Positions 4,153-52,282 of a stretch of 64,000 nucleotides of DNA are shown piece after piece. Position numbers and translations under genes: made by a program. Below the pieces are notes generated by a model. The model was not told the DNA's origin and made no database searches. It saw only the letters and a program-made list of their open reading frames with translations. The first letter of the stretch is position 1. Every line of letters starts with the position of its first letter. The stretch comes from Planctomycetota bacterium (GTDB lineage: Bacteria > Planctomycetota > J058): the NCBI GenBank assembly GCA_041402045.1, contig JAWKSZ010000023.1, positions 32,837 to 96,836 of the forward strand. The letters run 5' to 3'.

Positions 4153-4221
4153 GTCGGCGCCCCCCTTCAGGCTCCAATTATGCGCAGGGGAGCGGGGGAA
4201 TTGAAGGGCGCCCCCTCTCGC

Positions 4222-4767
4222 TCAGGCCGCCTGGGCGAGGCCCAACTCCCGGGCCCAGTGCTGCATGCGCTCCTGGGAGGCGGCCTCTGGGTAGCTCGCG
4301 GCTTCCAGGGGAAAGTTCACGAGGGCGTCGGGCAGGTTCACGTGGAACACCACGGTGTAGAGCTGCACGTTCCCCGCGCGGGACCTGCCGGCGCTGACCC
4401 GGGACACGCTCACGTTCCCCGCGGCCTTCCCGGCGAACTCGACCTTGCCGAAGGGGTTCCCCCGCGCGAGCTCGAGGGCCTGGGTCTGGGTGTCGTAGCG
4501 CAGGTGGCAGGTGCCGAAGCAGGTGTCGACGAAGCCGTAGGCCGCGATCAGCGCGCCGAGGCCCGCGCCGAGGCGCACCGGGAGCGGCACGTCGGCGACC
4601 CCCACGATCCACACGCACACCCCGGCCATGACCAGGAGCAGGAACGCGGCCAGGCGCAGGCGCCCGTCGATCTCGAGGCGCTGCCCGTCGAAGCGCGTGC
4701 GACAGAGCACGATCGAGAACCGCCGCTTGCGCGGTCCCCGCCGGCTCGCCGCTCCCTCCCGGTCCAC
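4222..4767 (-). CDS. hypothetical membrane protein
   Basis: 181-aa ORF filling the gap between rho and the FHA gene on the same strand. Two hydrophobic helices. Called on composition only. Confidence 0.4.
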   Translation of the reverse strand: MDREGAASRRGPRKRRFSIVLCRTRFDGQRLEIDGRLRLAAFLLLVMAGVCVWIVGVADVPLPVRLGAGLGALIAAYGFVDTCFGTCHLRYDTQTQALELARGNPFGKVEFAGKAAGNVSVSRVSAGRSRAGNVQLYTVVFHVNLPDALVNFPLEAASYPEAASQERMQHWARELGLAQAA

Positions 4768-11876: not shown

Positions 11877-12415
11877 GTCGGGGGCGCGACCCGCAGCCCC
11901 GTGCGCCAGCGGGTCCGGCGCAGCAACCCGCCGGTGACCAACCCCACGCGCAGCTCGAGGGGCCTGAGCCCCGCGCGCCGTACACGGACCTCGATCGCCC
12001 ACGTCCCCGGGTCGCGCTCCCCCGCAGGCAGGAGCGCGAGGCGGGCCTGGGCGTCGCCGCGGGTGGCGAGGGTCAGCGCGCGGATCCAGGTCGGCGTCCC
12101 GAGGGCGAGCTCGACCCGGGCTGCGAGCCAGGGGCTGCGCAGGCTCGCGGGGTCGAGGCTCAAGCGCAGCCGGGGCACGAGCGGGGCGGGGTCCGGTCGG
12201 GGCTCGTGGCTCACGCAGGCCGCCCAGCCGCGGCCCACGGCCCAGGCGTCGCCCTGGCGCGCGGTGGCCAGACGCTCGAGCAGCGCCGCGTCGTCGCAGC
12301 TCGGGCAGCGGGCGAGCTCCCAGCCGCAGCCGGGGTGGACGGGGGCGGCGCAGCGCGGGCAGGCCAGGGTCCCGCGAGCCTCGCCTCGGCAGAAGGGGCA
12401 GCGTGGGCCGCTCAC
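11807..12415 (-). CDS. hypothetical protein with N-terminal zinc ribbon (CPFC...CPRC...CPSC)
   Basis: GTG overlaps the histidine-kinase stop (GTGA), suggesting translational coupling. It is the C-terminal part of a 620-aa shadow ORF. Its 3' end overlaps the convergent hydroxylase gene by ~70 nt. Confidence 0.4.
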   Translation of the reverse strand: MSGPRCPFCRGEARGTLACPRCAAPVHPGCGWELARCPSCDDAALLERLATARQGDAWAVGRGWAACVSHEPRPDPAPLVPRLRLSLDPASLRSPWLAARVELALGTPTWIRALTLATRGDAQARLALLPAGERDPGTWAIEVRVRRAGLRPLELRVGLVTGGLLRRTRWRTGLRVAPPTQPWDAAGSSVAPVVAGSTERSA

Positions 12416-14262: not shown

Positions 14263-14963
14263 GCGACCTCCTCGCCCAGCTTCCAGCCCGCGCCGTGGAC
14301 CGTGAGCACGATTCGGGGCTCGCTGCGCTCGGGCTCGATCTTCTTGCGCAGCTTGCCGATCGTGTTCTCGACCGTGCGCGTCTTGACCCCGCTCGCGGTG
14401 GGGTAGCCCCACACGTTTACGAGGAACTCGGGCTGGGTCACGACGCGCCCCTTGTGCTGGGCGAGGTAGCGCAGGATCGCGACCTCCTTGGCCGTGAGCT
14501 GGATCGGGTCGCCGCCCTCGAGGGTGCACTCCATGCGCGAGAGGTCCAGGTGTACGCCGTCCAGGCTCAGGACCTCGGCCTGCTCCTCGCCGTCGCTCCA
14601 GCCGCTGCGCCGCAGGCGCGCGTCGACCCGAGCCAGGAGCTCGCGCACCGAGAACGGCTTGACCATGTAGTCGTCGGCGCCCAGGGACAGCCCGCGCACC
14701 CGGTCGTCCTCGCTGCCGCGTGCGGTGAGCATGAGCACGGGGGTGCGATCGCCGTCCTGGCGCAGGCGCTGGCACACCTCGAACCCGTCCAGGCCGGGGA
14801 GCATGACGTCGAGCACGATCAGGTCGTAGCGGTGCGCGCGCGCGCGACGCAGCGCCTCGGCGCCGTCCACGGTGTCGTCGACCGAATAGCCCCGCGCGCG
14901 CAGCGCGTCGCGCACGGCGGTGCGAATGCTGGGCTCGTCCTCGACGAGGAGGATCGTCTTCAC
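14250..14963 (-). CDS. OmpR-family response regulator
   Basis: 237 aa. Receiver (ILLVEDEP...LDVMLPGLDG...MLTARG) and winged-helix output (LTAKEVAILRYLAQH...VWGY). GTG with GGAGG 7 nt upstream. Confidence 0.9.
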   Translation of the reverse strand: MKTILLVEDEPSIRTAVRDALRARGYSVDDTVDGAEALRRARAHRYDLIVLDVMLPGLDGFEVCQRLRQDGDRTPVLMLTARGSEDDRVRGLSLGADDYMVKPFSVRELLARVDARLRRSGWSDGEEQAEVLSLDGVHLDLSRMECTLEGGDPIQLTAKEVAILRYLAQHKGRVVTQPEFLVNVWGYPTASGVKTRTVENTIGKLRKKIEPERSEPRIVLTVHGAGWKLGEEVACGS

Positions 14964-15113
14964 GGCAAGGCCTCCACCGGGATCGTAGACGCGGAGCCCC
15001 CCCCGCGCCCTGCAACGCGATTGCAAATCCCCGCGACGTCGAGTTGCAGGCTCGTGGGCGGCGATCCGGGGCGCGCGGGCGTCTACTCGGGTGAGCCACA
15101 GGAGGTCGCTCGC

Positions 15114-16430
15114 ATGAAGTCCCCACACCCCACCCCGAACCCCGTCCCCACCGTCGAAGCCCTGCCCGAGTCCGACACCCGGGCGCTGAGCGTCCTGGCG
15201 CTGTGCGCCCTGGGCCTCGCCGGCGCCGCCTGCTGGGCCTCGCTCAGCGATCGCGCCGCGCCGGTCGTCGTCGGTCCCCCGCCCCGCCTGGCGGTCGTCG
15301 CCGAGCCCGAGCCCGAACCCCTGCCCGAGCCCGACCCGGCGCAAACCCTGGTCACCGTCGAGCCCGGGGTCGAGGAGCCCCAGGTCGACGTCGGGCCGCA
15401 GACCGCGGCCTCCCCCCGGATCGAGGTCGCCTTCGTGCTGGACACCACCGGGAGCATGGGCAGCCTGCTCGAGACCGCCAAGCAGAAGATCTGGGGGATC
15501 GTGAACGTGCTCGCCACGGCGCGCCCGCAGACCCAGATCGCCCTGGGGCTGGTCGCCTACCGGGACGCGGGGGAGGCCTACGTCGCCCAGAGCTACCCGC
15601 TCACCGAGGACCTGGACAGCTTCTACGCCGCGTTGATGGCGCTCCAGCCCGTGGGCGGGGGCGACGCCCCCGAGGCCGTGCTCGAGGCCCTGGCTGCCGC
15701 AGCCAAGGACATGCAGTGGACCGCCCGCGGAGCGCGCACCGTGTTCCTCGTCGGCGACGCTCCGCCCCACCCCGAGACGCTCCAAGCCTGCCTCGGCGCG
15801 CAGGCCTGGGTCGACGGGCAGGGTCAGGCCCTCGAGCCGACGCGGATCAACACGATCCTCTGCGGCGCCGACCGCAGCGCCGGGGCGGCGTTCCAGTCGA
15901 TCGCGGGCGCCCACACCGGCGAGTTCGTCGCGATCGAGCCCAACCCCGCCGCGCACACGATCCAGACCCCCTACGACGCCGAGATCGTGCGGCTCCAGGC
16001 CGAGATCGAGGCCACGGTGCTGGCCTACGGCTCCGCGGAGGACAAGGCCCGGGTGTCGAGCCAGCAGGGCATGAACTACGCCAACAGCGCCGAGGTCCAG
16101 TGCCAGCGCGCCTCGGCGTTGACCAAGACCGGGGGCTTCTACAGCAACGACCTGCTGTGGGCGGTCGAGAACTCGACGGTCGTCCTGGACGAGCTCGACG
16201 ACGCCTGTCTGCCCGACGAGCTGCGCGGGCTGAAGCCCTCTGCTCGGCGCGAGGCCCTCGAGGCCCTGCGCGCCAAGCGCGAGGCCGCGAAGCGCGCGCT
16301 GCTCGAGGTCGTCGCCCAGCGCGACGGCTGGATCGCGCAGCAGCCCGAGCTCCAGAGCGACTTCGAGCGCGAGATCCAGGCGATCCTCGCCTCCCAGCTC
16401 GCCGAGCACGGCTTCTACTTCGGCTGCTAG
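15114..16430 (+). CDS. secreted von Willebrand factor A (VWA) domain protein
   Basis: ATG with GGAGG 8 nt upstream. Signal-like hydrophobic N-terminus. MIDAS-like DTTGSM motif. Divergent from the two-component pair. Confidence 0.85.
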   Translation: MKSPHPTPNPVPTVEALPESDTRALSVLALCALGLAGAACWASLSDRAAPVVVGPPPRLAVVAEPEPEPLPEPDPAQTLVTVEPGVEEPQVDVGPQTAASPRIEVAFVLDTTGSMGSLLETAKQKIWGIVNVLATARPQTQIALGLVAYRDAGEAYVAQSYPLTEDLDSFYAALMALQPVGGGDAPEAVLEALAAAAKDMQWTARGARTVFLVGDAPPHPETLQACLGAQAWVDGQGQALEPTRINTILCGADRSAGAAFQSIAGAHTGEFVAIEPNPAAHTIQTPYDAEIVRLQAEIEATVLAYGSAEDKARVSSQQGMNYANSAEVQCQRASALTKTGGFYSNDLLWAVENSTVVLDELDDACLPDELRGLKPSARREALEALRAKREAAKRALLEVVAQRDGWIAQQPELQSDFEREIQAILASQLAEHGFYFGC

Positions 16431-17036
16431 CTAGCTCGCGAGGGCCCACTCCGTGAGGGACTCCGCCAGCGCCTGGCGCAACGCCTGGCGCTGGTGGCGC
16501 AGCGTCCCCCGCAGGAGCTTGGCGACCTCGTCGACCAGCAGCGCCGCGAACTTGGTCACGTCCTCGGGGGCGGTGGCTCGGAGCAGGCGCTCGGTCCAAA
16601 GGGTCAACCGCGAGCCCTCGCCCAAGGGCGGGGGCGCGGTGCCTGCGCGACAGGCCTCGAGGTGCCCGAGGAGCGTGGCGAGCTCAGCGAGCAGCACGTC
16701 CTCTGCCGGCGCGGTGCTCCCGTCGAGCTCGCGCTGGGCGAGGGCGAAGGCCGCGCCCACCGCTCGGGCGGCGGCGCCGCGGACCAGGAGCGGGTAGCGC
16801 CCGAGGCGCCCCCGCCCCAACCCGCGCACCCAGGTGAGCAGGTTCGGCTCCTCGGCGAAGCCGCGGTCGCCCAGGGCGCGCTGCGCTGCCACCGAGCCCA
16901 CGTAGGCCGCGAACAGCAGCCGCGGGCGAGGGAGCGTCCCCGCCCGCACCCGCGCTTGGACCAGCTCGCGCTCGACGTCCAGGTCCCGGGTGGCCAGCCA
17001 GCGCTGCTCGAGCTCGCGCAGGCGTCGGTCGCTCAC
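16431..17036 (-). CDS. hypothetical protein
   Basis: ~201 aa. GTG overlaps the stop of the upstream WGR/DUF4132 gene (GTGA). Its stop abuts the VWA stop (tagcta). Confidence 0.5.
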   Translation of the reverse strand: MSDRRLRELEQRWLATRDLDVERELVQARVRAGTLPRPRLLFAAYVGSVAAQRALGDRGFAEEPNLLTWVRGLGRGRLGRYPLLVRGAAARAVGAAFALAQRELDGSTAPAEDVLLAELATLLGHLEACRAGTAPPPLGEGSRLTLWTERLLRATAPEDVTKFAALLVDEVAKLLRGTLRHQRQALRQALAESLTEWALAS

Positions 17037-20000
17037 CCGCGGCGCTTCTCGGCGATCGAGGCCAGGTCCCGGGCGACCTCGCTGAGCACGGTGCGGTCGA
17101 GGTCGGCCAGGGGGATCCCGGCGTCGGCCTGGAGCGAGGCGCACTCCCCGGGGCTGAGCGCGCCCTCGAGGAACAGCACGCCGTCGACGGGCTGATCCTC
17201 CTCCCACTCGAAGGGCACCACCGAGAGCCCGCCGTGCTGCAGCACCGCGGTCAGGCCCGCGCCCTCGAAGTGCTTGTAGTGCTCGCCCACGATCCCCGCG
17301 TCCTGGGGCTCGCCGCGCTGCCAGCCGCGCGTGGCGAGCAGCCCGCGCAGGGACTGGGGCGGGATCGGGACCCCGCAGGCGTGGGTCAGGCGCTGGCCCT
17401 GGAGCTCCTGGGGGTCGAGCGAGATCGCCTCGCGCTCGAGCTGGGGGAACGGGGCCAGCCGGCCCTCGCGGTCCCACAGCGCCTGCCAGGTCGCGCGCTC
17501 CTCGTCCTCCAGGTCGAGGGGGTGGAGGACTCCGACCGGGTCGTCGAGGACCCGCGGCTTCCCCGTGAGGTCCCGCGCGCCGCCGGCGTCGTCGAGGCGG
17601 AACGGGACGGGGCCCTCGGGGCCGTAGGTCGCCCACACCGTGCCGGAGGCCAGGTGTCGCAGGAGCGGGTGTTCGACGATCAAGGCCCGGAAGTCGTCGG
17701 GGCTCCAGCGCCGCTGGCCGACCATGGCCTGCTCCAGGCGCTCGCGCTGCAGCGCGAGGACGCCCTGGACCTCCTTCTTGAACGCGCGCCACTCGGCCAG
17801 GGCCTGGGGCGCGAGCTCGGGGTCGTCCTGCTTGCCCGGCTTGGGCGGGGTCTTGAGCAGCTTGCCGTCGGCGCGCTTGACCAGGGGCACCAGCTCGGGG
17901 CCCAGGCAGAAGGCGAAGCTGCGCGGACCGTAGTCGAAGCTGCGCTGGCCCTCGGCGTCGAGGCCGCAGTCCGGGACCAGGCGGTCGGCGAGCTCTTCCC
18001 GGGAGAGGCCCCGGGCGGCGGCGATCTCGTCCATGCACTCCGCCGCGCGCTGCTTCAGCGCGCGGAACTTGAGCTTCTGCGCGATCCCGGCGAGCGCGCT
18101 CAGCGCGCGCTCGCTGCCGATCGTGCGCAGGCAGTCGAGCCCGAGGACCGCGCGAGCGTGCTGGCTCTCCCCGGGCCAGGCGCGGATCAGCGGCGTGAGG
18201 CGCGCGACGGTGGCGTCGCCGCCCAGGTGCCCGAGACCCGCCAGGACCCACTTCTGCTGGGGCGGAGCGCCGTTGCGTTCCCAGGCGCTGTAGGCGCTCC
18301 AGGCGAAGGCCTCCAGGGACTCCGCGCTGGCGGCGGTCTTCAGCGCCGCGACCGCGTCCCGGCCGTCGGCCCCCACCTCGCGCAGCGCGCGCAGCGCGAG
18401 CGCGACCTGAGCTGCGTTCAGGGGCGCGCCTCCCACCCGAGGGGCCTCCAGGCGCTCGGGGCGCAGCCAGGTCGCGGCGTGCTTGCCCTTCAACGGGGCC
18501 AGCCCGGCGACGGCCTCGAAGGCGCGCTCGAGCTCGGCGGGCAAGTCCGCCGGAGGCACGTCCGCCGCCGGCTCCAGCAGCCCTGCGACCTGCTCCGCGA
18601 TCGCGGGGGCGGGGTCCTCCAGCTCGAGGGCGCGCTGGACCGTGGCCGGGGCCGCCTCGGCCAGGTCGAGCAGGGTCTCGCGCGCGTCGTCGACGGCCTC
18701 CCCGCGCGCGAGCGCGCGGATCAAGCCCCGCGCCGCGACGCCGGGGTTCTCCTCGAACCACTGCGTGACGAAGGGCAGCGCGGAGCGCTTGCTGCGCAGA
18801 GCCAAGATCGTGGGCACGAGCTCCGGGTCGCGGACCCCGCGCAGGAGCTCGAGGTAGCGGGGGAGCGAGTCCGTGGTCTGAACCAGGAGCGACTGGGTGA
18901 GCGTGGGGTAGCCCGCGCTGCCGGTGGTCGCGATCCAGGCGGCGAGCTGCTTGGGGTCGGTCACCAGGAGCTTCAGGCGTTCGGCCTCCGCGACCATGCG
19001 CTCAGCGCTCCCCAGCGCGAACAACAGGGCCTGCGGGTCCTGGGCGTAGGCGACATAGGCTCCGCGAAAACGCCCGGGGGGGAACGCGGCGAACAAGGCC
19101 TGGAGTGGCTCGACGCAGCCGAACAGCGCGGCGAAGTAGAGCACCAGGGGCCAGCGCTCCTCGTCGTCCACCGCGTGGAGGTCGAGCCCCGCGAGGTCCG
19201 CGAGGATCTGAGCTCGCATGCGCCCGCGCTCGGCGCGGCTGAGGTAGGGGAGCACCTCCTGCTGGTAGGCTTCCCGCAGCCCCATGTCGCCAAAGTTGCG
19301 CCGGGTCGGGGCGCGCCAGCTCGGCGACGTGCGCAGGCGCTCCAGGAGCAGGTCGTCGAGCTCCTGCTCCGTCAGGAACTGTCGGGTCAGGCGCAGGGCG
19401 GACACGTCGCCGAGGGCTGAGGACGGCCACACCAGGCGGTCCCAGCTCCGGTCGAGGGTCAGGTCCCCGGCGACGGTGGCCAGGTCCACGTCCTGGCCGT
19501 CGCCGACCTCCGCCGCCACCTGGATCGGGGTCCGCTCGCCGTTCACGCGGCGCAGGACCGCGTAGACGAAGCGCGCCCCCTCGGGGGTCAACGGCGGCTC
19601 GAGGGCGCGCCAACTCAGCGCGCCGACGAAGAACCCGCGATGGCCGGCGTAGTCTTCGGTGAGGCTCGCGAGGGTCGCCTCGCGGTCGAAGGGCTGCGGC
19701 GCGGGGCGCTGGAGCGGTTCAGGGTCCTGCCACAGAGGCCAGAACGCGGTCTCCTGAGAGAGGTCGAGCCTGGGCTCGAACTCGACGCTCGGGTCGACCG
19801 CGGCGGGCTTGGCCTTGGCGGAGGCGGCCTTGCGCTCGGCGGGCGGCGCTGTGGCGGGGGTGGCCTGAGCCTTACGGCCGGCGACCTTGGCCTCGGGCGC
19901 CTGCGGCTGGGCGGCCTTGCCCTTGGCCTTGGCCTTGGCAGCCTGCGGCTGGGCGGCCTTCGGCTTGGGGGACGTCGGCTCTGACGGCGGAGCGCCTGCG

Positions 20001-35882: not shown

Positions 35883-35968
35883 ACCCTAAGCTGAGCAGGG
35901 ATTTCTGCTCCTTCACGGGAAACCCTCGGCGCCTCAGAGGCGCCGGGACAGCGGTTGGGCGGGCCCCC

Positions 35969-37063
35969 ATGGGCTTGTGGGCGAACTTCAAGGCGAATCG
36001 CGAGCTGGCCGAAGCCAGGCGGGACGTGGCACGCGCGCGCTCGCCGTACTCGATCGCTCAGTTCATCGACAAATGCATCGAGCTCGGTCGGCTCGATCAG
36101 GCCTTCGAGGACGCCGAGAAAGGGATCCAGGAGTTCCCCGAGTCGGAGTCGCTGCAGGAGGCCTACAAGCGCATGATCCGCGCCAAGTGCGCGGACGACC
36201 TCAAGGCCTACCGCGACGAGATCCGCACCTCCCCCGGCCCGAAGGCGTATTACCGGCTCGCGTGCCTCTACAAGGAAATGCGCGACCTGGACCAGGCCGT
36301 CGAGCTCGCGCGCAAGGGCATGGAGGACTACCCCAACTTCGAGGGCAACTACATCGTGCTCGCGGACCTGCGCTACGAGCGCTTCCAGCGTGACCTGCGC
36401 GCGTCCGACGGGCTCGAGGCGACCCAACTGTTCGAGAAGGCGGTGGACCTCAACGGCGAGAACTACCGCCTGCTGTTCCAGTTGGCCGAGATCTACCGCG
36501 CGATCGGGGCGCGCGACCACGCGATCGCCAAGGTCAAGATGATCTTGAACTTCGCCCCCGACGACCGCAACGCGCTGAACCTGCTGGCCCAGCTCAAGAG
36601 CGCCAAGGCCCCCAAGAGCAACGACCTCAAGGAGATCCTCCAGGACTTCGAGCGTCGGGCCGCGGCAGGCAACTTCCGCCAGCAGGGCCAGCTCTCGGCG
36701 CGTTACCTGGCCAACCCCGACCAGCTCGAGCGCAAGCTGCCGAGCCTGGACCGCATGCCGGGCTTCCAGCGCGTGGTCGTGCTCGGTCCCCACGGCGAGC
36801 TGTTGGCCGCCCACCCCGGCGGCGCTCAGGGCAACCGCAACGAGGCGGACACGCTGAAGAAGATGTTCGCGGCGGCGATCGATTGCTCGCTGCGCATGGA
36901 CATCTCCACCTTCGAGAAGGGCTTGTTCGAGTCCGAGGCTGGGTTTACCTACCTGGTCGTCGCCGACTCCTTGCAAATCGCCGTGCTCTCGAACACGAAG
37001 GTGAAGAAGGAAAAACTACGACAGGACGTGCACCGCTTTGTGGAGCACGACCTCTACATCTAG
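35969..37063 (+). CDS. TPR-repeat protein with C-terminal Roadblock/LC7-like domain
   Basis: 364 aa. N-terminal TPR-like helices. C-terminal ~110 aa (GFQRVVVLGPHGELLAAH...FTYLVVADSLQIAVLSN) fit the Roadblock pattern. Confidence 0.7.
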   Translation: MGLWANFKANRELAEARRDVARARSPYSIAQFIDKCIELGRLDQAFEDAEKGIQEFPESESLQEAYKRMIRAKCADDLKAYRDEIRTSPGPKAYYRLACLYKEMRDLDQAVELARKGMEDYPNFEGNYIVLADLRYERFQRDLRASDGLEATQLFEKAVDLNGENYRLLFQLAEIYRAIGARDHAIAKVKMILNFAPDDRNALNLLAQLKSAKAPKSNDLKEILQDFERRAAAGNFRQQGQLSARYLANPDQLERKLPSLDRMPGFQRVVVLGPHGELLAAHPGGAQGNRNEADTLKKMFAAAIDCSLRMDISTFEKGLFESEAGFTYLVVADSLQIAVLSNTKVKKEKLRQDVHRFVEHDLYI

Positions 37064-37093
37064 GATCGAATCGGGAGACCGCAGTCGGCAGGC

Positions 37094-37444
37094 ATGCAAT
37101 CCATTCTCTCTGCACTGAATCAGGTCGCTGGCGTCAAGGGCAGCATGGTCGTCACCAAGGACGGTGTGGTGGTGGCCGAGGTCCTCGGTCCCGACCTGCG
37201 CAAAGAGGTGGTGGCCGCCGTCTCCTCCCACATGATTCAGGTCAGCGCCCGCTCGCTTGAGGACCTCGGCCGAGGTACCCTGGAGCGCGTGGCCGTGACC
37301 TCTGCCCACGGACGCATGGTGTTCGTGAACCTGGACGTGGGCTACCTGGTCGTGATCACCAAGATGGAGATGAAGCTCGGGCAAGTGCTCATCGAAGTCG
37401 AATCGGCTGCGCGGAAGATCAAGCAGCTACACAGCAGGATCTGA
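37094..37444 (+). CDS. Roadblock/LC7-domain protein (short MglB-like)
   Basis: 116 aa. GVKGSMVVTKDGVVVAEV...GYLVVITKM pattern. Confidence 0.8.
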   Translation: MQSILSALNQVAGVKGSMVVTKDGVVVAEVLGPDLRKEVVAAVSSHMIQVSARSLEDLGRGTLERVAVTSAHGRMVFVNLDVGYLVVITKMEMKLGQVLIEVESAARKIKQLHSRI

Positions 37445-37535
37445 GGGTGGAGGCTTCCGACACCCAAGGGGCGGGATGGTAACGAGGGCTGCGCCGAACC
37501 AGCTCAGCACTCGGTGACCGTGGAGTAGAGCCAGA

Positions 37536-38579
37536 ATGGTCCAGATCAACTTCGCCAAGCGCGAAATCAACTGCAAGCTCGTGTACTACGGGCCGGGGTT
37601 GTCGGGGAAGACCACCAACCTCGAGGTCGTGCACAAGAAGGCACCGGCCTCGAAGAAGGGTGAGCTGACCTCGATCGCCACCGAGGGCGATCGCACCCTG
37701 TTCTTCGACTACATGCCGCTCGAGCTGGGCAAGGTCGGCGGCATGAACACGAAGTTCCAGTTGTACACGGTGCCGGGCCAGGTCTACTACAACGCCACCC
37801 GTAAGCTCGTGCTCCAGGGCGCGGACGGGGTGGTGTTCGTCGCGGACTCCCAGCCCGACAAGATGGACGAGAACATCGAGAGCTTCCAGAACCTGGAGGA
37901 GAACCTGAGGGAGCAGGGCCTGCAGCCCGAGACGATCCCCATGGTCCTGCAGTGGAACAAGCGCGACTTGCCCAACGTCTGCGACGTCAGCGAGCTCGAC
38001 AAGAAGCTCAACAAGTACAACAGCCCGACCTTCGAGGCCGTCGCGGTCACCGGCGAGGGGGTGTTCCCCACCCTCAAGAAGCTGGCGCAGATGGTGCTCG
38101 AGAAGCTCAACAAGGAGTACGGGCTCAACCCCGACAAGAAGGGCGAGGCGGGCAAGAAGGAGACCGCGGCGGCGCCGGCGGCCAAGCCGGAGCCGAAGCC
38201 GGAGCCCAAGCCCGAGCCCAAGCCCGAGCGTCGCCCGGAGCCGAAGCCCGAGCCCGTCGCCGAGCGGCGAGCGGAGCCGAAGCCGGAGCGGCGGGCGGAG
38301 CCGAAGCCCGAGCGGCGCGAGCCTGCGCCGCTGCCCAGCGGCAACCGCAAGCCTCAGGGCTACGACATCGGGAGCGGCGCGCTGCCGCCTCCGCCCAAGA
38401 AGGGCGGCGGCAAGGGCCTGATGATCGTGATGCTCCTGATCCTGGTGGTGGCCGGGGCGTTCATCGGCGGCGGCTATACGGGTAAGCTGGAGCAGGCGGT
38501 GCCTGCGCTCCAGAAGTTCTACGACGACAAGCTCGCACCCACCCTCGGCGGCGGCTCCCAGAGCGCCGGCGGGGAGTAG
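37536..38579 (+). CDS. MglA-family small GTPase with C-terminal PEPK-repeat linker and transmembrane helix
   Basis: First ~195 aa align closely to MglA (GPGLSGKTT, TDRTLFFDY, TVPGQ, NKRD, AVTGEGV). Followed by (PEPK)n/ERRAEPKP repeats, then LMIVMLLILVVAGAFIGGGY and a short tail. Confidence 0.9.
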   Translation: MVQINFAKREINCKLVYYGPGLSGKTTNLEVVHKKAPASKKGELTSIATEGDRTLFFDYMPLELGKVGGMNTKFQLYTVPGQVYYNATRKLVLQGADGVVFVADSQPDKMDENIESFQNLEENLREQGLQPETIPMVLQWNKRDLPNVCDVSELDKKLNKYNSPTFEAVAVTGEGVFPTLKKLAQMVLEKLNKEYGLNPDKKGEAGKKETAAAPAAKPEPKPEPKPEPKPERRPEPKPEPVAERRAEPKPERRAEPKPERREPAPLPSGNRKPQGYDIGSGALPPPPKKGGGKGLMIVMLLILVVAGAFIGGGYTGKLEQAVPALQKFYDDKLAPTLGGGSQSAGGE

Positions 38580-46112: not shown

Positions 46113-46177
46113 GGCTTCCAGAGCTTTGGGTCGTCCGTTGACGGCCTCCGCCCCCGCGGCTAGCATTGGGCCCACAC

Positions 46178-46250
46178 GCAGCCATAGCTCAGTTGGTTAG
46201 AGCGCCTGATTGTGGATCAGGAGGTCGCCGGTTCGAATCCAGCTGGCTGT
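46178..46250 (+). tRNA. tRNA-His (anticodon GTG), atypical acceptor end
   Basis: Manual cloverleaf: acceptor GCAGCCA/TGGCTGT (G1-U72), D arm GCTC/GAGC, anticodon stem CCTGA/TCAGG with loop TTGTGGA, T arm GCCGG-TTCGAAT-CCAGC (one C-A mismatch). Discriminator A73. Base -1 is C. No encoded CCA. Confidence 0.75.
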
Positions 46251-46255
46251 ATGCG

Positions 46256-46290
46256 ACGAAGCCCGCCCCCGTGGCGGGCTTCGTTCGTTC
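46256..46290 (+). terminator. hairpin plus T-rich tract downstream of tRNA-His
   Basis: gaagcccgcc-cccgt-ggcgggcttc followed by gttcgttcc. Confidence 0.5.
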
Positions 46291-46296
46291 CGGAGG
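46261..46296 (+). repeat. 36-bp direct repeat, left copy (att-like)
   Basis: gcccgcccccgtggcgggcttcgttcgttccggagg, identical to 51068-51103. Confidence 0.85.
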
Positions 46297-46439
46297 GACG
46301 GGAGAATCACTGACCTGGTGCCCGGTGGCCCCCCTACGAGCCCCCGGATTGGCGCAACCCTGGCCGGCACGGCCAGCGGGCCCGCCACACCTGGCACAAG
46401 CGTCACTGATCGCGCACTCTCCAGGTCAAGAGGCTGCCA

Positions 46440-47441
46440 ATGAGTGATTCCGACCAGGGCGGTGCGAAGGAAGAGACCGTGGACCCCTTGGACGCCCTCT
46501 ACAAGACGGTCGAGGAAGCGGCGGAGTTCGCCGAGGGGGGAAGTGACGGAATATCAATCGAGGTGTTCTATCACCGGAACGCCGCCGACCCGTTGGCTGT
46601 GCTGAACAAAGAAGCCACGGGGGCTGCGAAGCTCGCTGATCCGACAATCACCGCACGGCGCTCGCACGGCGCTTTCCTGGCGGTATCGGTTCTGGCGTGT
46701 TTGGCGATCTTGTGGTGGGGCTATCAGGTCTACTCTTCTTCGCTGAAGGCCTGGAAGGCAACCGCCGCCTCCGACGCGGACGCCCCCCGCGCCGCCGGCC
46801 CCGACGCACAATCTCACGAAAGTCACTCTGAACCTTCAGCCCGACCCATCGCTGACTACGGGGCGTTTGGAGATAGCCTTGCACCAATCGCGGTGTTTGG
46901 CGCGGTTCTCGCCGTCCTGCTCTCTACGTTCAGCAGCTACCTGCAATCCCGTGACCTCATCGCTCAGCTCGACGAGATGACCGAGTCGAGGAAGTCGCAG
47001 TCCGACATGGTTCGAGTTCAGGCGATCCAGATCGCAATAAGCCAGATCGACCTCCTGTGGAGCCGGGTTGCGCCATACGTTGAGGACGCAAAGGTCCGGG
47101 CCGAGCGCGTTGCCAGGATGGAGTGGTGGCTCGCCGAGAAGGTGGACTTCCTGGATCCAGAAGTGGCGGGAAAGTTCAAGGAGATGTCGGAGGGAGTGAA
47201 GAGCCAGCTCGACCTCTGCAAGAGGGTAGAGGGAGAACTAACGCTGGCGCGCGTTTCTTGCCTGAACCCTGCTCCTATCTGGAGCAAGCGGTTCCTAGCT
47301 CTTCAGCAGACTGTGGCTACCTTCGCGATCCAGATACGGAAGATTGAGCACGACTTCGAGATACTGCAAGTGTTCGGATCGATAGATTTCATTCCCGTCC
47401 AGGAGGACATTGGTCCACTTACGGGACGCCTCTCCGCCTAG
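46440..47441 (+). CDS. hypothetical membrane protein (two TM helices)
   Basis: 333 aa. AAGAGG 6 nt upstream of the ATG. Lower-GC codon usage. Confidence 0.6.
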   Translation: MSDSDQGGAKEETVDPLDALYKTVEEAAEFAEGGSDGISIEVFYHRNAADPLAVLNKEATGAAKLADPTITARRSHGAFLAVSVLACLAILWWGYQVYSSSLKAWKATAASDADAPRAAGPDAQSHESHSEPSARPIADYGAFGDSLAPIAVFGAVLAVLLSTFSSYLQSRDLIAQLDEMTESRKSQSDMVRVQAIQIAISQIDLLWSRVAPYVEDAKVRAERVARMEWWLAEKVDFLDPEVAGKFKEMSEGVKSQLDLCKRVEGELTLARVSCLNPAPIWSKRFLALQQTVATFAIQIRKIEHDFEILQVFGSIDFIPVQEDIGPLTGRLSA

Positions 47442-47848
47442 GCAGACGCCGCTCGGCGCGCTACTAACACCGGATTCAGGGTAGTGAAGGCATGGAGCAG
47501 CTCGTTAACTTGACTCGGCGATCGGCTGACAGAATTCGCCGTAAGTCCCTTTGTGGAAGTCGCCGGATCAACCAACGACTTGCACCGCTCGACGACATGC
47601 ACCATCGCTCAAGTTGATCTCTGCGCACCTGGAGCGGATCGCTGAGGTGCAGGAAGTCAAGTTGCGGTAGCTGCGTGCGAAGGCGTCCCCGAGGGATCAA
47701 GGTCACTCTAGGGCGCGGATCAGCGCCAGCTCCGAGCCCGCCTTCTTCCACAGCTTGAACAGCAGGCGGCGCAGTTCGGCCTCCAGGCAGTCCTGGTGCA
47801 CCCAGCCGACGCTCTCGGCCATGCCTGAGCGCTGTTTCTGATTCGCGA

Positions 47849-48157
47849 TCACGCCGCGCGCTGCGCAAGCCTGTCTGGGCGGTCCGCAGCCTGACCCGCG
47901 GGGGGTAGAGAGCAACTCGAGCATTTGCGCGCTCGACAGCGAGTTCTGCGCAGGGGTGGCCTGAGGCGCCGGCGCGGGCGTGAGTCGCGCTTCTGGCGGC
48001 GGCCGCGCAGGGGGGCGCCCACCCTGTGGAGCCGCTGAACCTCCGTTGCTGGAACCCAGACCCTGCTCCCAGGCCGCGACACCGCCAGGTCCCCCCGGGA
48101 GATCAGCTCTCTGACATGTCGGATGCTGACCCGCATGCGCTCGGCGAACTCGCTCAT
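47849..48157 (-). CDS. AlpA/Xis-like helix-turn-helix DNA-binding protein (excisionase family) with basic tail
   Basis: N-terminal MSEFAERMRVSIRHVRELISRGDLAVSRPGSRVWVPATEVQRL matches the excisionase/HTH_17 pattern. The remainder is R-rich. Confidence 0.5.
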   Translation of the reverse strand: MSEFAERMRVSIRHVRELISRGDLAVSRPGSRVWVPATEVQRLHRVGAPLRGRRQKRDSRPRRRLRPPLRRTRCRARKCSSCSLPPAGQAADRPDRLAQRAA

Positions 48158-48406
48158 GGTCAGATAGCCCGGCGGTGAACTTGCCTTGGCGACCGCGTGT
48201 CTTACAGACTCGCCAAGCGCTGTGAGCCGACGATCAAGCCGCTCCTCAAGGCGGCCGAAGCGCTCGCTGAGGAGACGTGCTCGGGGGAATGAGTAGAGTC
48301 GGGGCTAGCCATGGGGCCTCCTGAAGAGGTCCTGGTCAGGGCCGAAGAAGGTGTTCCAGCACCAACCTCGGCCCGCCCCGTTGTCGCGGATTCCGAGTCG
48401 GCCGGG

Positions 48407-49087
48407 CTACTCCTCCGCTTGCTCGGCGTTGCGCGCGCGATCCAGCTCGCGGTTTCTCTTCCGTTGCTCTTCCTTCTTGCGCCGGTTGTCTTCCGCTTGG
48501 ATCTTGCCCTCGTGCTTCTTGAGGATCTTCTCGTCACGTTCCTCGGCGACCTTCCTCTTGTCTTCCGGTATCAACGCTCGATGGCGCTCAAGTCGCTTCT
48601 GCCTCCCTACAGTCTCGTCCACGAACAGGTTGATTGCGCTGAACAGCTCGTCAGCGATCGAGGGATCCTCGTCGAACTTGATCTCGGACGGGTGCACGGC
48701 GTCGTTGCCGTAGAGCCGGATCAGGTCGGCAGTCCTGATTACGTCTTCGTGGACGCCCTTGACCTTCAACTCAGCGATCTTCTGGTCGATCGTGCTGGTC
48801 GGGCTGTTGGGCTTGCAATCCAGTTGGTCGTGCAGGAAGTGGTCTAGGGCGAGGCGAAGCAAGGCCGCCGTAGCGCGCGTTGAATGCGGCAGGACCCGGC
48901 GCGCTTCCTCGAAAATCTCCAGAGCAGCTCCCTTCAGGTCCTCGTGTGGTTCGGGAGCGTCGAGCTTGAGCGGCCATAGCAACTCGCCAAACCTCGATTC
49001 TACTTCCACTAGATCGTCGTCTTGGACGATGCCTCGAAATTGATCCAGCCAAGTAGCTGTCTTGGAGCAGTGGTGGCGGGTGGACAC
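48407..49087 (-). CDS. DUF4145-domain protein with K/R/E-rich C-terminal tail
   Basis: LDHFLHDQLD...KIAELKVKGV...DLIRLYGNDAVHPSE matches the DUF4145 signature (…KI..L...G.I...IR..GN.aaH). GTG start. AT-richer codons. Confidence 0.65.
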   Translation of the reverse strand: MSTRHHCSKTATWLDQFRGIVQDDDLVEVESRFGELLWPLKLDAPEPHEDLKGAALEIFEEARRVLPHSTRATAALLRLALDHFLHDQLDCKPNSPTSTIDQKIAELKVKGVHEDVIRTADLIRLYGNDAVHPSEIKFDEDPSIADELFSAINLFVDETVGRQKRLERHRALIPEDKRKVAEERDEKILKKHEGKIQAEDNRRKKEEQRKRNRELDRARNAEQAEE

Positions 49088-50089
49088 CAGAAGAGTGAAT
49101 CTGTAGGGTAGCTGACTCCCACCCCTGGTGCTTCACTCGCAGCCAGTTCTGCATGGACGCCGCACCACAGTGCGGACACTTGATCACCCGCTTTCGGAAG
49201 CCCGGGCGCCGAACTTCGCCTTCAAGTGCTTCAGAACTTCTTCCTGGCTTAGCTCGCTCACGTGGATCTCCTTGGTCAATATCTCCGGCGAGGTCGTTGG
49301 CCTGGAGTGCGCACTGGTAGGCGTCATAGACACAAAAGATCGCGAGGCAGAACCAGCCGAGGAAGACCAGTAGGAACGCTGCCGGGTCTGCGTGGCTCGC
49401 GATTATCACCGCCCAGAAGATCGTCACACCAACGATCGGCGCGAAGAAGAAGGTCAAGCCTCGGAGCGCGCGCCCGGCGTAGAGCTGCCCGAGGCCGAGA
49501 ATGAAGAAGGAGAGCACGGCCGCGGTTCCGGGGTTCGCCTGTTGACGGACGATGACGACGCGCGACGACCCCCAGCTCGCACCCGCCCCGACGCGCGTCT
49601 CCGCTGAGAGCTCCTGCGTGAGCTCCCGCGGCGCTGCGGGCCCCTGGCCTCCCGAACCTCGCAGCCGCAGAACCGGCACACGCGGGCGGCCGGTTTGATC
49701 AGCTCCGCGCAGTCGGGGCAAGGAACCTCGGTCACCGGGGTGATCGGCTGGCTGTCGAACCCGCTGGGCTCTTGCTTCGCGGCCTTGGCGCGCTCAAACT
49801 CGAGCTTGGCCCAGGCCAGGTCCAGCTTTTCCTGTTCGAGCTTCGAGCGCTCCTCCTCTACGGTCGGCGGCTCGTTGCCGACCATGGTGTTGAACACCTC
49901 GCCGGAGTCCGTGGGGAGGGCGTCCTCGGCGCTCTGGCTCACCCCTGCGTCCTTCTGCGCCGCGATCTCCGGGAGCGTGGGCACCTTCACGCCGCTCTTG
50001 CACTTGGGACACTTGCCAGTGGCGCCCGCGTGCTTGCTGCTGACCCGGATCCGCCGGGAGCACTGGGGGCAGGGGAAGAAGATCGGCAT
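48771..50089 (-). pseudogene. double zinc-ribbon + TM2-like membrane protein, apparently frameshifted
   Basis: Frame 1 (50089-49454) has CPQC...CPKC and CPDC...CRFCGC zinc ribbons, then an R/S-rich tail. Frame 2 (49721-~49150) carries the TM2-like hydrophobic core (AVLSFFILGLGQLYAGRALRGLTFFFAPIVG...) and runs on across the DUF4145 gene. Confidence 0.4.
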
Positions 50090-50198
50090 GCGCCGAGCCT
50101 ACAGGACTGGTCGCTGCACATCGACCAATCAGAGAATGTTGGCGAGCGGGTGGGCCGAGTGTGTCTTAGCTGTGGCGGCTGCCGCCGGATAGGCTGAC

Positions 50199-50972
50199 AT
50201 GTGGGGAGGTCGCGTGAGCGTCAACGAGCCTATGCAGCCGCAGGAGGAGAGCAAGAAGGAGGTCGTCTTGCGCGGACTCGGGTTCGCGCTGGCGGGTATG
50301 GGGATTTACGCCGCGCCCGCTGTCGTGGAGATGGCTCTTGCAGTCGACAAGGCGAACAAGGCCCGCGTGCAGGAGGCCTTGGCCAGCGAGGTGAGCACCG
50401 CAACCAAGGCCGAGCTTGGCCAGCTGAGGGACCTAATCAGCGGTTTAGAGAACAGGGCCGAACTCAGTGAACGGCGGCAGGCTACCTTCCTGAAGCTCTT
50501 CCTAGAGGCGGGGACCCACCCGGAACCGGACTTTCAGCGCGCCAAGGCCCGCCTTGTCGCCAGGCTGGGTCTTGGGAGGGTTGGTGAGTCAGAAGCCCTA
50601 GAGGCCTCGATGCTCATGGATCGGATGGTCCGGGACGACCTCCTATGCCTCCAGATCGTCGACGGGCTCGAGTCTGAGGGCGTGGGAGTCTGGCCGGAGA
50701 AGGGAAGCGGCCCTAACACCAGCAGGCAGCCGCTGGACAACGTACGCGGGTCGCACGAGGACTCATTGATCGACCTAGCGCGACAGAGAGCAGGTCGCAC
50801 CGAGGACTACTGGGATGAACGGATCACGCGGGCGATCCAGCTGGGCACGCTCAAGACTCCGCGGCGGCGCTCCATCGGTCAGGAGCACTACCGTGTTTTG
50901 GCAACGACTGCGATCGGGCGACTGATCGCCGATCAGTTCCGGTGCGAAGCCAAGCCTGGTCTGAACGATTAG
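50199..50972 (+). CDS. hypothetical protein
   Basis: 257-aa ORF. Alternative starts at GTG 50214 (GGGGAGG upstream) or ATG 50232. Confidence 0.5.
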   Translation: MWGGRVSVNEPMQPQEESKKEVVLRGLGFALAGMGIYAAPAVVEMALAVDKANKARVQEALASEVSTATKAELGQLRDLISGLENRAELSERRQATFLKLFLEAGTHPEPDFQRAKARLVARLGLGRVGESEALEASMLMDRMVRDDLLCLQIVDGLESEGVGVWPEKGSGPNTSRQPLDNVRGSHEDSLIDLARQRAGRTEDYWDERITRAIQLGTLKTPRRRSIGQEHYRVLATTAIGRLIADQFRCEAKPGLND

Positions 50973-51067
50973 CCTACAGCGCGGGTGAGGCAGCCGATCC
51001 AGGGAGAGGTCGTCGGTGAAACTGCTCGGACGACGGGGCGCAGGGCCGTGAGCACCAGTTTCCGCGG

Positions 51068-51103
51068 GCCCGCCCCCGTGGCGGGCTTCGTTCGTTCCGG
51101 AGG
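51068..51103 (+). repeat. 36-bp direct repeat, right copy (att-like)
   Basis: Identical to 46261-46296. Lies just 3' of the convergent secreted-protein gene. Confidence 0.85.
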
Positions 51104-51115
51104 CGGCGAAGGCCG

Positions 51116-52282
51116 CTACTTGGTCCACTTGACCGCGAACACCGCCCGGTGACCCGGGTACTCGCTCAGCGACCAGAGGTTGCCCTTGCTGGGGGTGAAG
51201 GTCAGATCCTCGGGGCCGTAGGCCCACTCCCGCGCCGCGCTCGGGGTGAAAGGGGCCGTGGCGTAGAGCCGGCCGTGGTTGCGGAAGCGGCGGATCTTCT
51301 GGCTGCTGCAGGCGAGCTGGAAGCGCCCGCGCCAGGAGAGGGCCCCCTGTACACGGTCCTGGTTGGCGACGAAGACCTCGGCCGGGTGGATCGCCCCCGC
51401 GCCCTCGAGGAGCCCGCTCACCGGGTGGAAGGACCAGCGCGCGAGCTTGCCGTCGACCGCGTCCTTCACGTACTCGCCGGTCAGGAGCGAGGGCGGGTTC
51501 GTGCTGCGGTCGACCGAGACGAAGGAGAAGCGCAGGTCCGCGCTGGCGCCGGTCAAGCGGTAGGCGCCGACCTGCGGGAGCACGTAGCGGTAGTCGAAGG
51601 CGTAGAACCGGCCCCCGCTGCGTCCGATCGTCTCGCGCTTGCCCGTGCTCACCCGCAGGATCCGCTGGGTGTCGAACACCCGGAAGCCCCGGGTCGTGTC
51701 CACGGCGTAGAGGTAGCGCCCGACCCAGGCGATCCCGCCCGCGTGGATCGGGACCGGACGGAAGCTCGCGTCGCCGCTCGCGTCGCGGGTGGGCTCCACG
51801 AGCAGCACGTGCCGGTAGCGCACCCGCTGCATGGAGGTCACGTCGACGAAGCTGACCCGCACGCCCTTGTTGACCGCGCTCGAGCTCTCCTCGCGCTTGA
51901 AATACCAGCTCGCGAGCAGGATCCGCTTCCCGCCCAGGGACTCCGAGGGGAAGGCGGCGGCGGTCCCGCTGATCCCTTGCGGCCACCAGTACTCGACGGC
52001 GTCGTCGCCGCGGTCCCAGCGGAAGCCGGTGTGGATCCGAATCCCGTCCAAGCTCCTGCCGAGGGGCCGGCCCTCGCGGTTGGCGTCGGCGACGACCTGG
52101 AGCACGCTCGCGCGGGGGAGCTGGCGGGCCAGCTCGTCGGTCAGCCCGTCGAGCCGGGTCCACTCCGCGGGGTCTTCGCCGAGGGAGAACGCGCGGGGGG
52201 AGAGGGGCCGGAGGCCCTGGTGCTCCTGGGCCAGCGCGGGGAAGGTCGCGAGCAGGGCCAGGGCGGCGGTGGGGAGTTTCAT
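51116..52282 (-). CDS. secreted hypothetical protein
   Basis: 388 aa. Signal peptide MKLPTAALALLATFPALA. Mostly beta-like composition. Confidence 0.7.
   Translation of the reverse strand: MKLPTAALALLATFPALAQEHQGLRPLSPRAFSLGEDPAEWTRLDGLTDELARQLPRASVLQVVADANREGRPLGRSLDGIRIHTGFRWDRGDDAVEYWWPQGISGTAAAFPSESLGGKRILLASWYFKREESSSAVNKGVRVSFVDVTSMQRVRYRHVLLVEPTRDASGDASFRPVPIHAGGIAWVGRYLYAVDTTRGFRVFDTQRILRVSTGKRETIGRSGGRFYAFDYRYVLPQVGAYRLTGASADLRFSFVSVDRSTNPPSLLTGEYVKDAVDGKLARWSFHPVSGLLEGAGAIHPAEVFVANQDRVQGALSWRGRFQLACSSQKIRRFRNHGRLYATAPFTPSAAREWAYGPEDLTFTPSKGNLWSLSEYPGHRAVFAVKWTK

Follow-up and report, generated by a model that had tools for sequence, protein, structure and literature searches.

The 4.8-kb stretch directly to the right of the tRNA-His gene in a Planctomycetota metagenome-assembled genome (MAG) raises the question of whether it is a mobile element and, if so, whether the element and its defence-like cargo are still functional. 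Within the window, that is, the whole 64-kb stretch of DNA that was analyzed, the 4.8 kb enclosed by two 36-bp direct repeats had a GC content of 63.6%, compared to 71.8% for the window, and windowed GC analysis placed the lowest-GC 4.8-kb stretch exactly there. The GC3 of the islet ORFs was 0.72–0.86, compared to 0.94–0.98 in the host genes, and the AT-shifted codon usage described in the original prediction was confirmed by both profiles, which set the islet apart from host genes. The end of the islet is marked by a host-like gene (51116..52282, minus strand) encoding 388 aa of no known family with a GC3 of 0.97. Another GC-poor stretch, at 36–38.6 kb, was considered as a second islet and rejected, since it contains housekeeping DNA.

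The tRNA-His gene (anticodon GTG; 46178..46251, plus strand; ARAGORN, and Rfam tRNA with 68 bits) belongs to the host. It is preceded by a promoter-like TTGACG-17-TAGCAT at 46138–46166, found by promoter scan, and its 3′ half and trailer are the same in the related genomes L001, L004, and L006; Rfam returned nothing else over the islet region. The gene is followed by its native terminator hairpin (46255..46285, plus strand), with a 13-bp stem and a 5-nt loop, defined by folding (−31 kcal/mol, z = −3.8) and by conservation: L001 and L006 have kept the hairpin, and so has L004, where two pairs show compensatory changes. The repeats, GCCCGCCCCCGTGGCGGGCTTCGTTCGTTCCGGAGG, are identical at 36 of 36 positions and lie on the plus strand at 46261..46296 (left copy, putative attL core) and 51068..51103 (right copy, putative attR core). 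As predicted, the left copy sits in the native hairpin, with its first base at the foot of the inner 7-bp stem, 9 nt beyond the tRNA-His end. It ends 17 nt beyond that inner stem, which is 11 nt beyond the 13-bp hairpin as a whole. The right copy, which lies 12 nt away from the convergent host gene's stop codon, does bound the islet, but it does not carry the terminator hairpin attributed to it: of the 13-bp stem it retains just the inner 7 bp, and this truncated duplicate of the terminator folds no better than shuffles (z = −0.4). Nor is the footprint the classic att footprint of a tRNA 3′ end, since the repeat lies entirely outside the tRNA gene. A cryptic tRNA 3′ fragment to the left of the right repeat was examined and attributed to chance (11 of 12 nt, not collinear, p ≈ 0.03). 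The repeat occurs just twice in the window, even with 3 mismatches allowed (0 expected from shuffles), which argues against the widespread terminator repeat that the original prediction had named as an objection to itself. A core pattern search found no copies at the loci of the relatives or in metagenome and viral collections, and the tRNA-His trailer pattern was not found in viral contigs. Exact repeats delimited in this way by a 7-bp inverted repeat are what recombinase core sites typically look like.

Comparison with the relatives showed that L004 carries, at the same site, tRNA-His, the hairpin, a homologous left end, a homologue of the first cargo gene (orf333), and an HTH gene, and that the start of this islet matches at the nucleotide-level position in a flank whose nucleotide sequence has diverged by about 14%. 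The islet is missing from L001 and from L006, the sister of L004 with a 94% identical flank, and because of this distribution it appears to come and go as a unit. With regard to the empty tRNA-His site suggested as a check, two relatives lack the islet, but the window's own right flank is not syntenic with any relative, so that no empty site of the same lineage was found; the assembly index held no exact match to P0001 or to the window proteins. The right neighbours of tRNA-His differ in all four related genomes. Moreover, the post-hairpin TTCGTTCCGGAG differs between carriers and non-carriers, following the presence of the islet and not host phylogeny, and a simple attB/attP model falls short of fully explaining this pattern.

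This poor fit to simple integration, the variable right neighbours, the lack of a recombinase, and the lack of a tRNA fragment at the right end would agree with a recombination-prone, hypervariable tRNA-His flank in which no element was ever inserted, the repeat having arisen at the hairpin by local duplication or illegitimate recombination and the low GC reflecting relaxed selection in DNA that is decaying. Such an origin seems quite improbable in view of the homologous islet starting at the same position in so diverged a flank, the foreign composition of even the intact genes (GC3 0.72–0.78), a dS for orf333 threefold that of the flank, the excisionase-family HTH in both islets, and the recombinase-core-like limits of the exact repeat.

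The DUF4145 gene (48407..49187, minus strand), which gave the islet its defence-like appearance, is, judging by Pfam, PADLOC, PDB, and tblastn comparisons, a homologue of RAZR/PD-T7-4 with a zinc finger and a DUF4145/HEPN RNase domain, and apparently a pseudogene of this family rather than a working member. The system is described in two studies and one structure (Vassallo et al. 2022, PMC9519451; Nature 2026, PMC13017515; PDB 9y9c); RAZR is a ring-activated zinc-finger RNase that acts by abortive infection with phage ring proteins as the activator (PMC13017515). DUF4145 (PF13643) scored 40.1 bits, the Pfam gathering score being 23.1. The PADLOC PD-T7-4 profile matched the ORF at 6.8e-37 (positions 47–209) and, after removal of 1 nt to restore the frame, at 2.3e-43 (positions 15–209), while RAZR itself (9y9c) was aligned over residues 15–212 with E = 8e-24. 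As in RAZR, an N-terminal CxxC zinc-ribbon region is followed by DUF4145/HEPN, and the Arg and His corresponding to the catalytic R146 and H154 of the E. coli protein (PMC13017515) are present with the same spacing (IRLYGNDAVH vs. CRIVGNQAVH). The protein also matches phrog_1305; the word-indexed protein search returned only the protein itself, and the search of viral contigs gave no relatives.

Unlike RAZR, to which it is about 30% identical, the islet protein has 18 aa inserted behind the zinc finger, a Lys/Glu/Arg-rich C-terminal tail, and two lesions in the zinc finger. Downstream of the GTG start at 49187, tblastn placed the first CxxC (49178–49134) in frame −1 and the remainder (49087–48527) in frame −2, so that the frameshift, with the G-run CAGGGGTGGG, falls between 49134 and 49087, within the zinc finger; in addition, Arg replaces Cys as the third zinc ligand (STRHHC, compared to STCSHC of RAZR). 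An intact Cys4 zinc finger in frame with HEPN is absent from the gene. Because the damaged zinc finger is, in RAZR, the trigger-binding domain that determines specificity (PMC13017515), the defence function has, by analogy, probably been lost. The original prediction was accordingly right about a defence-like gene, as the RAZR/PD-T7-4 homology shows, but the minimal defence or abortive-infection module that it considered possible is unlikely to be active because the RAZR-like gene itself is broken. The 226-aa “DUF4145 protein” of the public annotation conceals this truncated pseudogene, and counts of defence systems based on HMM matches only would list the locus as a live PD-T7-4.

RAZR was described as a single-gene system, whereas its islet homologue has a translationally coupled gene upstream (49184..50089, minus strand), the TGA of which overlaps the GTG of the RAZR-like gene (GTGA, 49184–49187). 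This upstream gene encodes a double zinc-ribbon/3-TM membrane protein and is indeed broken, as had been noticed: the GC3 frame plot and three-frame translation located frame switches from 1 to 0 near 49655 and from 0 to 1 near 49300–49340. The TM2 label attached to it did not hold, as the best that TM2 (PF05154) achieved in the six-frame scan was E = 0.024 (nothing at E ≤ 0.01) and the DZR, UPF0547, and TM2 matches were all under the Pfam thresholds; PHROGs of unknown function were matched as well. The excisionase-like HTH_17 gene (47703..48313, minus strand) was assessed with Pfam, TIGR01764, PADLOC, and the GC3 frame plot. Here, there is some family resemblance (HTH_17, E = 4.6e-4, or 1.9e-5 on the stop-to-stop stretch; PADLOC mad1, 8e-7), but the label stays below both thresholds, with 20–21 bits for HTH_17 (cutoff, 27) and 25.8 bits for TIGR01764 “excise” (cutoff, 28.8). 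The gene also looks broken, the first usable start codon lying downstream of where the HTH domain (about 48166–48030) begins, and the frame plot showing a change of coding signal from frame 1 to 0 near 48030. The L004 gene, which matches it in position and orientation, scores above the HTH_17 threshold (43 bits); a homology seen by eye between the N-terminal parts of the two proteins was not supported by tblastn.

Altogether, three of the five cargo genes are broken, with at least four frame switches across three consecutive genes, all called from the assembled sequence of a single MAG. It is highly improbable that the islet is an assembly artefact, that is, a contig threaded via the shared 36-mer, for instance by the joining of a circular fragment or one from another strain to the chromosome, in which consensus errors pose as indels where coverage is low and strains vary. 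The source is a MAG, the repeat length is within the assembler k-mer range, and every lesion is inside the islet, all of which would suit such an artefact; against it, L004, an independent assembly of another sample, runs continuously from tRNA-His and the hairpin into the left end of the islet, and the Cys-to-Arg substitution is a separate lesion and not an indel. The frameshifts are also specific to the islet, because the host genes across about 59 kb are long and have no frame breaks.

The other two cargo genes, listed as unknowns in the original prediction, did lack family matches (Pfam, PADLOC, PHROG, and NCBIfam) and are both intact membrane ORFans, except that orf333 proved to have a conserved homologue. 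This gene (46440..47441, plus strand; a single coding frame by GC3) encodes a protein with two TM helices and a C-terminal helical bundle. L004 has, at the corresponding site, the homologue P0004 with 63–64% identity (dN/dS 0.19; dS 1.45, compared to 0.45–0.49 in the flank), so that orf333 is, on the sequences compared, under purifying selection, and it is the only cargo gene with demonstrated conservation. Among 1.84e9 representatives, only weak partial relatives were found, sharing with orf333 the motif TM-GxFGDSxAP-TM-LQxxDxxAQLxEM, and neither orf333 nor its family alignment found relatives in viral contigs; its AF2 model (pLDDT 51) was too weak for use. The second gene, orf257 (50199..50972, plus strand; a single coding frame), encodes one N-terminal TM helix and an otherwise all-helical protein. 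It retrieved just itself among 5.8e9 proteins in the word-indexed search and no relatives from viral contigs, and its AF2 model (pLDDT 39) was unusable. Direct comparison rejected the two genes as paralogues. The GC-poor stretch next to orf333 (47442..47702) is non-coding, with no coding signal on either strand in the GC3 frame plots and no match in the six-frame family scan, and is possibly a deletion scar.

As the original prediction stated, no recombinase resides in the islet: none of the families was detected in 82 six-frame stretches at E ≤ 0.05 or in ORF-level scans, and the corresponding check of the whole window covered 25 of its 48 matching families. Together with the frame switches in three consecutive genes, this bears out the stranded remnant that had been proposed. 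Integrase loss may be old, because L004 likewise shows no integrase beside its HTH gene. Several other arrangements were rejected. In a tandem-element model, an older island would begin on its left with the right repeat, but no host-type junction was seen in 51.1–64 kb. Judged by their generally known hallmarks, Xer/dif-type (IMEX) and integron attC sites did not fit, the core having none of these hallmarks and their genes being absent, and neither hallmarks nor genes of a casposon or CRISPR-like long target duplication or of IS200/IS605 hairpin targeting were seen.

The islet is probably a CIME-like decayed remnant of a site-specific integrative element in the terminator hairpin, with its defence cargo dead. 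The element would have been inserted into the hairpin directly 3′ of tRNA-His by a recombinase, most likely a tyrosine integrase, using as its core the 7-bp inverted repeat GCCCGCC/GGCGGGC with its 5-nt loop, the same geometry that such enzymes use on tRNA stem-loops. Identical copies would be found at both junctions because attP and attB shared 36 bp; the full terminator would have stayed with the tRNA and the partial one with the convergent right-hand gene. The cargo would have comprised an operon of the zinc-ribbon membrane protein, GTGA-coupled to the RAZR/PD-T7-4-type RNase, as well as two small membrane proteins and the HTH gene of the excisionase family. Subsequent loss of the integration genes, with attL and attR kept, would have left the islet no longer self-mobile.

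P4-like and similar tyrosine integrases serve islands and prophages that target tRNA genes, and Williams, in 2002, is said to have treated the sublocations of such integration in tRNA and tmRNA genes. The islet resembles these islands in its position beside a tRNA gene, its terminal direct repeats, its foreign composition, and a repeat whose centre is a stem-loop formed by a 7-bp inverted repeat, the geometry used at the anticodon and T stem-loops; it differs from them in having its core fully downstream of the tRNA, in the terminator hairpin, and no integrase gene. CIMEs are decayed ICE or IME remnants that have kept attL/attR but lost the genes for integration and transfer (Guedon et al. 2017, PMC5704250). 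The islet shares with them identical att-like direct repeats, the absence of integrase, relaxase, and transfer genes, proximity to a conserved RNA gene, and partly decayed cargo. No related autonomous element with its att site turned up in the viral or metagenome collections, and its host is, in contrast to theirs, a Planctomycetota MAG and not a Firmicute. No structural, conjugation, or replication gene remains from which the parent type (ICE, IME, prophage, or satellite) could be read.

CIMEs are known to travel with helper elements (PMC5704250), and an integrase-less CIME- or satellite-like element could still be moved in trans by an integrase whose gene lies on a helper element or at another genomic site, with HTH_17 as the directionality factor and orf333 under selection. 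The repeats are perfect, two islets separated by a dS of 1.45 both have the order attL-orf333-HTH and neither has an integrase there, the occurrence is patchy (L004 but not its sister), and purifying selection acts on orf333. Continued mobility nevertheless seems rather unlikely: the window HTH gene looks damaged, with its frame switch and no start codon covering the full domain, most of the cargo is broken, and the viral and metagenome collections yielded neither a helper element nor an attP copy, the visible genome being 64 kb. It is doubtful still further that the islets form, in a Planctomycetota clade, an integrase-less family that targets the tRNA-His terminator hairpin and not the tRNA and is moved by an unlinked recombinase, in which the rare but conserved orf333 (motif GxFGDSxAP) is selected, for example, as a new membrane-acting exclusion or defence effector; if the family is trans-mobilised, it would offer a tractable case, from a phylum that has been little studied, of mobility that targets a hairpin and dispenses with an integrase of its own.

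As a probable decayed remnant of the CIME type, the islet would be an ordinary decaying mobile-element remnant, of little importance beyond annotation. It suggests that RAZR/PD-T7-4-type genes come into Planctomycetota on small integrative islets and then decay by frameshift, and that the tRNA-His terminator hairpin is an insertion hotspot, with different content in each of the four related genomes.

The 36-bp sequence GCCCGCCCCCGTGGCGGGCTTCGTTCGTTCCGGAGG occurs as two exact direct copies, at 46261-46296 and 51068-51103, downstream of a single tRNA-His (GTG) gene called by both ARAGORN and Rfam at 46178-46251 on the plus strand. The intervening DNA has a GC content of 63.6%, compared with a window-wide 71.8%, and no other 4.8-kb stretch of the window is as GC-poor; the GC3 of the islet ORFs is 0.72-0.86 versus 0.94-0.98 for host genes. 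The exact copies, together with the windowed GC and codon profile, bore out the original prediction of a low-GC islet flanked by 36-bp repeats beside tRNA-His. Additionally, a promoter-like TTGACG-17-TAGCAT lies at 46138-46166, immediately upstream of tRNA-His, and is kept in the three related loci compared (L001, L004 and L006).

A strong hairpin follows tRNA-His in all four genomes; that of the window (46255-46285) has a stem of 13 bp and a folding energy of −31 kcal/mol (z = −3.8). Because L004 carries two compensatory base-pair changes in it, the hairpin is being maintained by selection as the tRNA-His terminator. The left repeat copy begins at the base of the inner 7-bp stem and extends 11 nt beyond the full 13-bp hairpin (17 nt beyond the inner stem). 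This copy does include the terminator hairpin, as predicted, in the form of the inner 7-bp stem-loop, and the right copy therefore has only this inner stem-loop, the folding of which is no better than that of shuffled sequence. The right copy is a truncated duplicate of the terminator, neither an independent terminator nor a dispersed terminator repeat. As to whether the 36-mer might be a common terminator repeat, only two copies were found in the 64-kb window, with no third copy when three mismatches were allowed and zero copies in shuffled sequence. No convincing tRNA fragment was found to the left of the right copy.

The islet proteins (locus tags R3F62_14170 to R3F62_14185, MAG Planctomycetota bacterium) match only themselves in an index of 5.8 billion proteins. 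Of the comparison loci, L001 came from scanning genomes for the left-flank K+ channel (88% amino-acid identity), L006 from scanning metagenomes for the tRNA 3′ end and trailer, and L004 through the single homologue of the islet membrane-protein gene orf333. In the flank, L004 and L006 share 94% of nucleotides, and the window shares approximately 86-87% with each of the other three. In L004, whose islet type is represented in ENA ERZ25043437 and ERZ25043448, a thioesterase gene, tRNA-His, the hairpin and TTCGTTCCGGAG are followed by a left end alignable to that of the window (64% identity), the orf333 homologue (63-64% amino-acid and 70% nucleotide identity), a minus-strand HTH_17 gene and the contig end. 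In L006, the sister of L004, and in L001, the hairpin is followed by CTCGTGTG and then by unrelated genes. Of three lineages, two thus carry a homologous islet at this one position, and a close relative of one of these carriers lacks it. In the comparison for an empty tRNA-His site, L006 and L001 lack the islet, their right neighbours are unrelated to that of the window, and no empty site with the window's own right flank was found among these relatives.

Each of the four genomes has a different right neighbour of tRNA-His: a 388-aa protein without known family in the window, a small TM ORF and an STK-TPR kinase in L001 (12.1-14.7 kb), the orf333 islet in L004 and a 342-aa acidic protein in L006 (3.6-4.8 kb). 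The site downstream of tRNA-His looks like a general hotspot. Moreover, the 11-12 nt after the hairpin follow islet carriage and not host phylogeny: TTCGTTCCGGAG is present in the window (46286-46296 and 51093-51103) and L004 (1205-1216), and CTCGTGTG(T)GGG in L001 (~12094) and L006 (~4776, minus strand), so that the sisters L004 and L006 differ. No host-type junction was found further right of the islet within the window; in the window's species, an islet-free site is predicted to read tRNA-His, ACGAA, one 36-mer, CGGCGAAGGCC and the 388-aa gene. When the window is compared with L004, dS is 1.45 for orf333 and 0.45-0.49 for adjacent host genes, where it is perhaps depressed by strong GC3 bias; the difference speaks against islet and flank having simply been inherited together.

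The DUF4145 ORF (48407-49087, minus strand) scored above the Pfam threshold and matched PADLOC PD-T7-4 (6.8e-37), the system since renamed RAZR, a single-gene abortive-infection RNase whose N-terminal Cys4 zinc finger determines specificity and is the part that binds phage ring proteins, and whose DUF4145/HEPN domain carries catalytic R146 and H154 (PMC13017515). The match covers the profile only from position 47, and the absent N-terminus was found in another frame, from GTG 49187. By tblastn, RAZR residues 16-30 lie in frame −1 (49178-49134) and residues 46-209 in frame −2 (49087-48527). With one G removed from CAGGGGTGGG, the PADLOC match reaches back to profile position 15 (2.3e-43), the PHROG match begins at position 18 instead of 54, and the alignment with the solved RAZR chain 9y9c covers residues 15-212. 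The catalytic R and H are conserved, whereas the second zinc knuckle reads RHHC instead of CSHC. The protein also differs from E. coli RAZR by an insertion of 18 aa behind the zinc finger (~48960-49040, minus strand) and by a Lys/Glu/Arg-rich C-terminal tail of ~40-65 aa (48407-48600, minus strand). The frameshift and the Cys-to-Arg change thus put two lesions in the sensor domain; the gene, defence-like as predicted, is regarded as a probable pseudogene that in its present state would lack a functional sensor domain.

Although RAZR is described as a single-gene system, here a zinc-ribbon membrane gene (from ATG 50089, minus strand) lies upstream, and its TGA overlaps the RAZR-like GTG (GTGA at 49184-49187), an overlap pointing to a two-gene module with coupled translation; the RAZR-type gene of this pair was probably the defence cargo. 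The membrane gene is indeed broken, its coding signal passing from frame 1 to 0 near 49655, at the site of three TM helices, and returning to frame 1 near 49300-49340; its proposed TM2 identity is less secure, since all Pfam matches are sub-threshold, TM2 (E = 0.024) among them. The switches (1 to 0 to 1, 49300-49655) compensate mutually over ~350 nt, and within each segment the frame in use gives a clean coding signal. Random decay would not usually leave such a pattern, which could stem from two independent indels or from replacement of a module out of frame. The HTH gene resembles an excisionase, as proposed, yet scored under the family cutoffs; the first start codon that could be used lies downstream of where the domain begins, and near 48030 the coding signal switches frame. 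Host genes elsewhere in the window are long intact ORFs, and the frame breaks are therefore islet-specific.

At the same time, orf333 (46440-47441) and orf257 (50199-50972), both on the plus strand, are single-frame throughout. The former encodes a protein with two TM helices and is under purifying selection (dN/dS 0.19); among 1.84 billion representatives, one full-length relative was found, and weak partial relatives have the common core TM-GxFGDSxAP-TM-LQxxDxxAQLxEM. Proteins P0005-P0015 form a small family of membrane proteins, 200-290 aa long and uncharacterised, in which variable coiled coils come after this core; no Pfam match and no viral-contig occurrence were found for the family. 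The product of orf257 is an ORFan in the 5.8-billion-protein index, and structure predictions for both proteins were too poor for use.

A purely local origin of the islet appears improbable, and an assembly artefact still more so; the independent assembly of L004, the foreign GC3 of the intact islet genes and the Cys-to-Arg lesion, which is not an indel, make both less likely. No integrase, resolvase, transposase or fragment of these was found in the islet by ORF-level scans or in 82 six-frame stretches of at least 40 aa, as the original prediction had held, and no recombinase appeared for the 38 other window genes among the 25 listed of 48 matching families. The best-supported reading, which we consider probable, is a remnant resembling a cis-mobilizable element (CIME) as defined in PMC5704250. 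The element would have entered through site-specific recombination at the tRNA-His terminator hairpin, after which its integration module and the greater part of its cargo would have been lost. The putative recombinase core site would be the 7-bp inverted repeat around a 5-nt loop, because the left boundary of the repeat falls exactly at the inverted-repeat edge; identical copies at both junctions, if produced by conservative recombination, imply that all 36 bp were common to attP and attB. Neither of the two diverged islets (window and L004) has an integrase next to its HTH gene, so the integrase may have been missing for long, which leaves room for mobilisation in trans, an unlikely alternative in our judgement; a helper element with the same core GCCCGCCNNNNNGGCGGGCTTCGTTCGTTCCGGAGG would support CIME-type mobilisation. 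The stranded-remnant interpretation is correct in outline: the finding is real, and the locus appears, from its sequence, to be an ordinary decaying islet with a dead RAZR homologue.

Note that a second GC-poor stretch, 35950-38579 (0.64 in the 36-38 kb bin), was rejected as another islet: it is conserved housekeeping DNA encoding a TPR protein, a Roadblock/LC7 (MglB-like) protein (37094-37444) and an MglA-like small GTPase (37536-38579), with no Rfam match in it. At 12400-17200, long ORFs overlap on both strands with GC3 of only ~0.81-0.85, and gene calls there are thus ambiguous. In a second Planctomycetota MAG (L002), a tmRNA gene (tag ANTNYALAA) lies at 4197-4549, near a distant K+ channel homologue.
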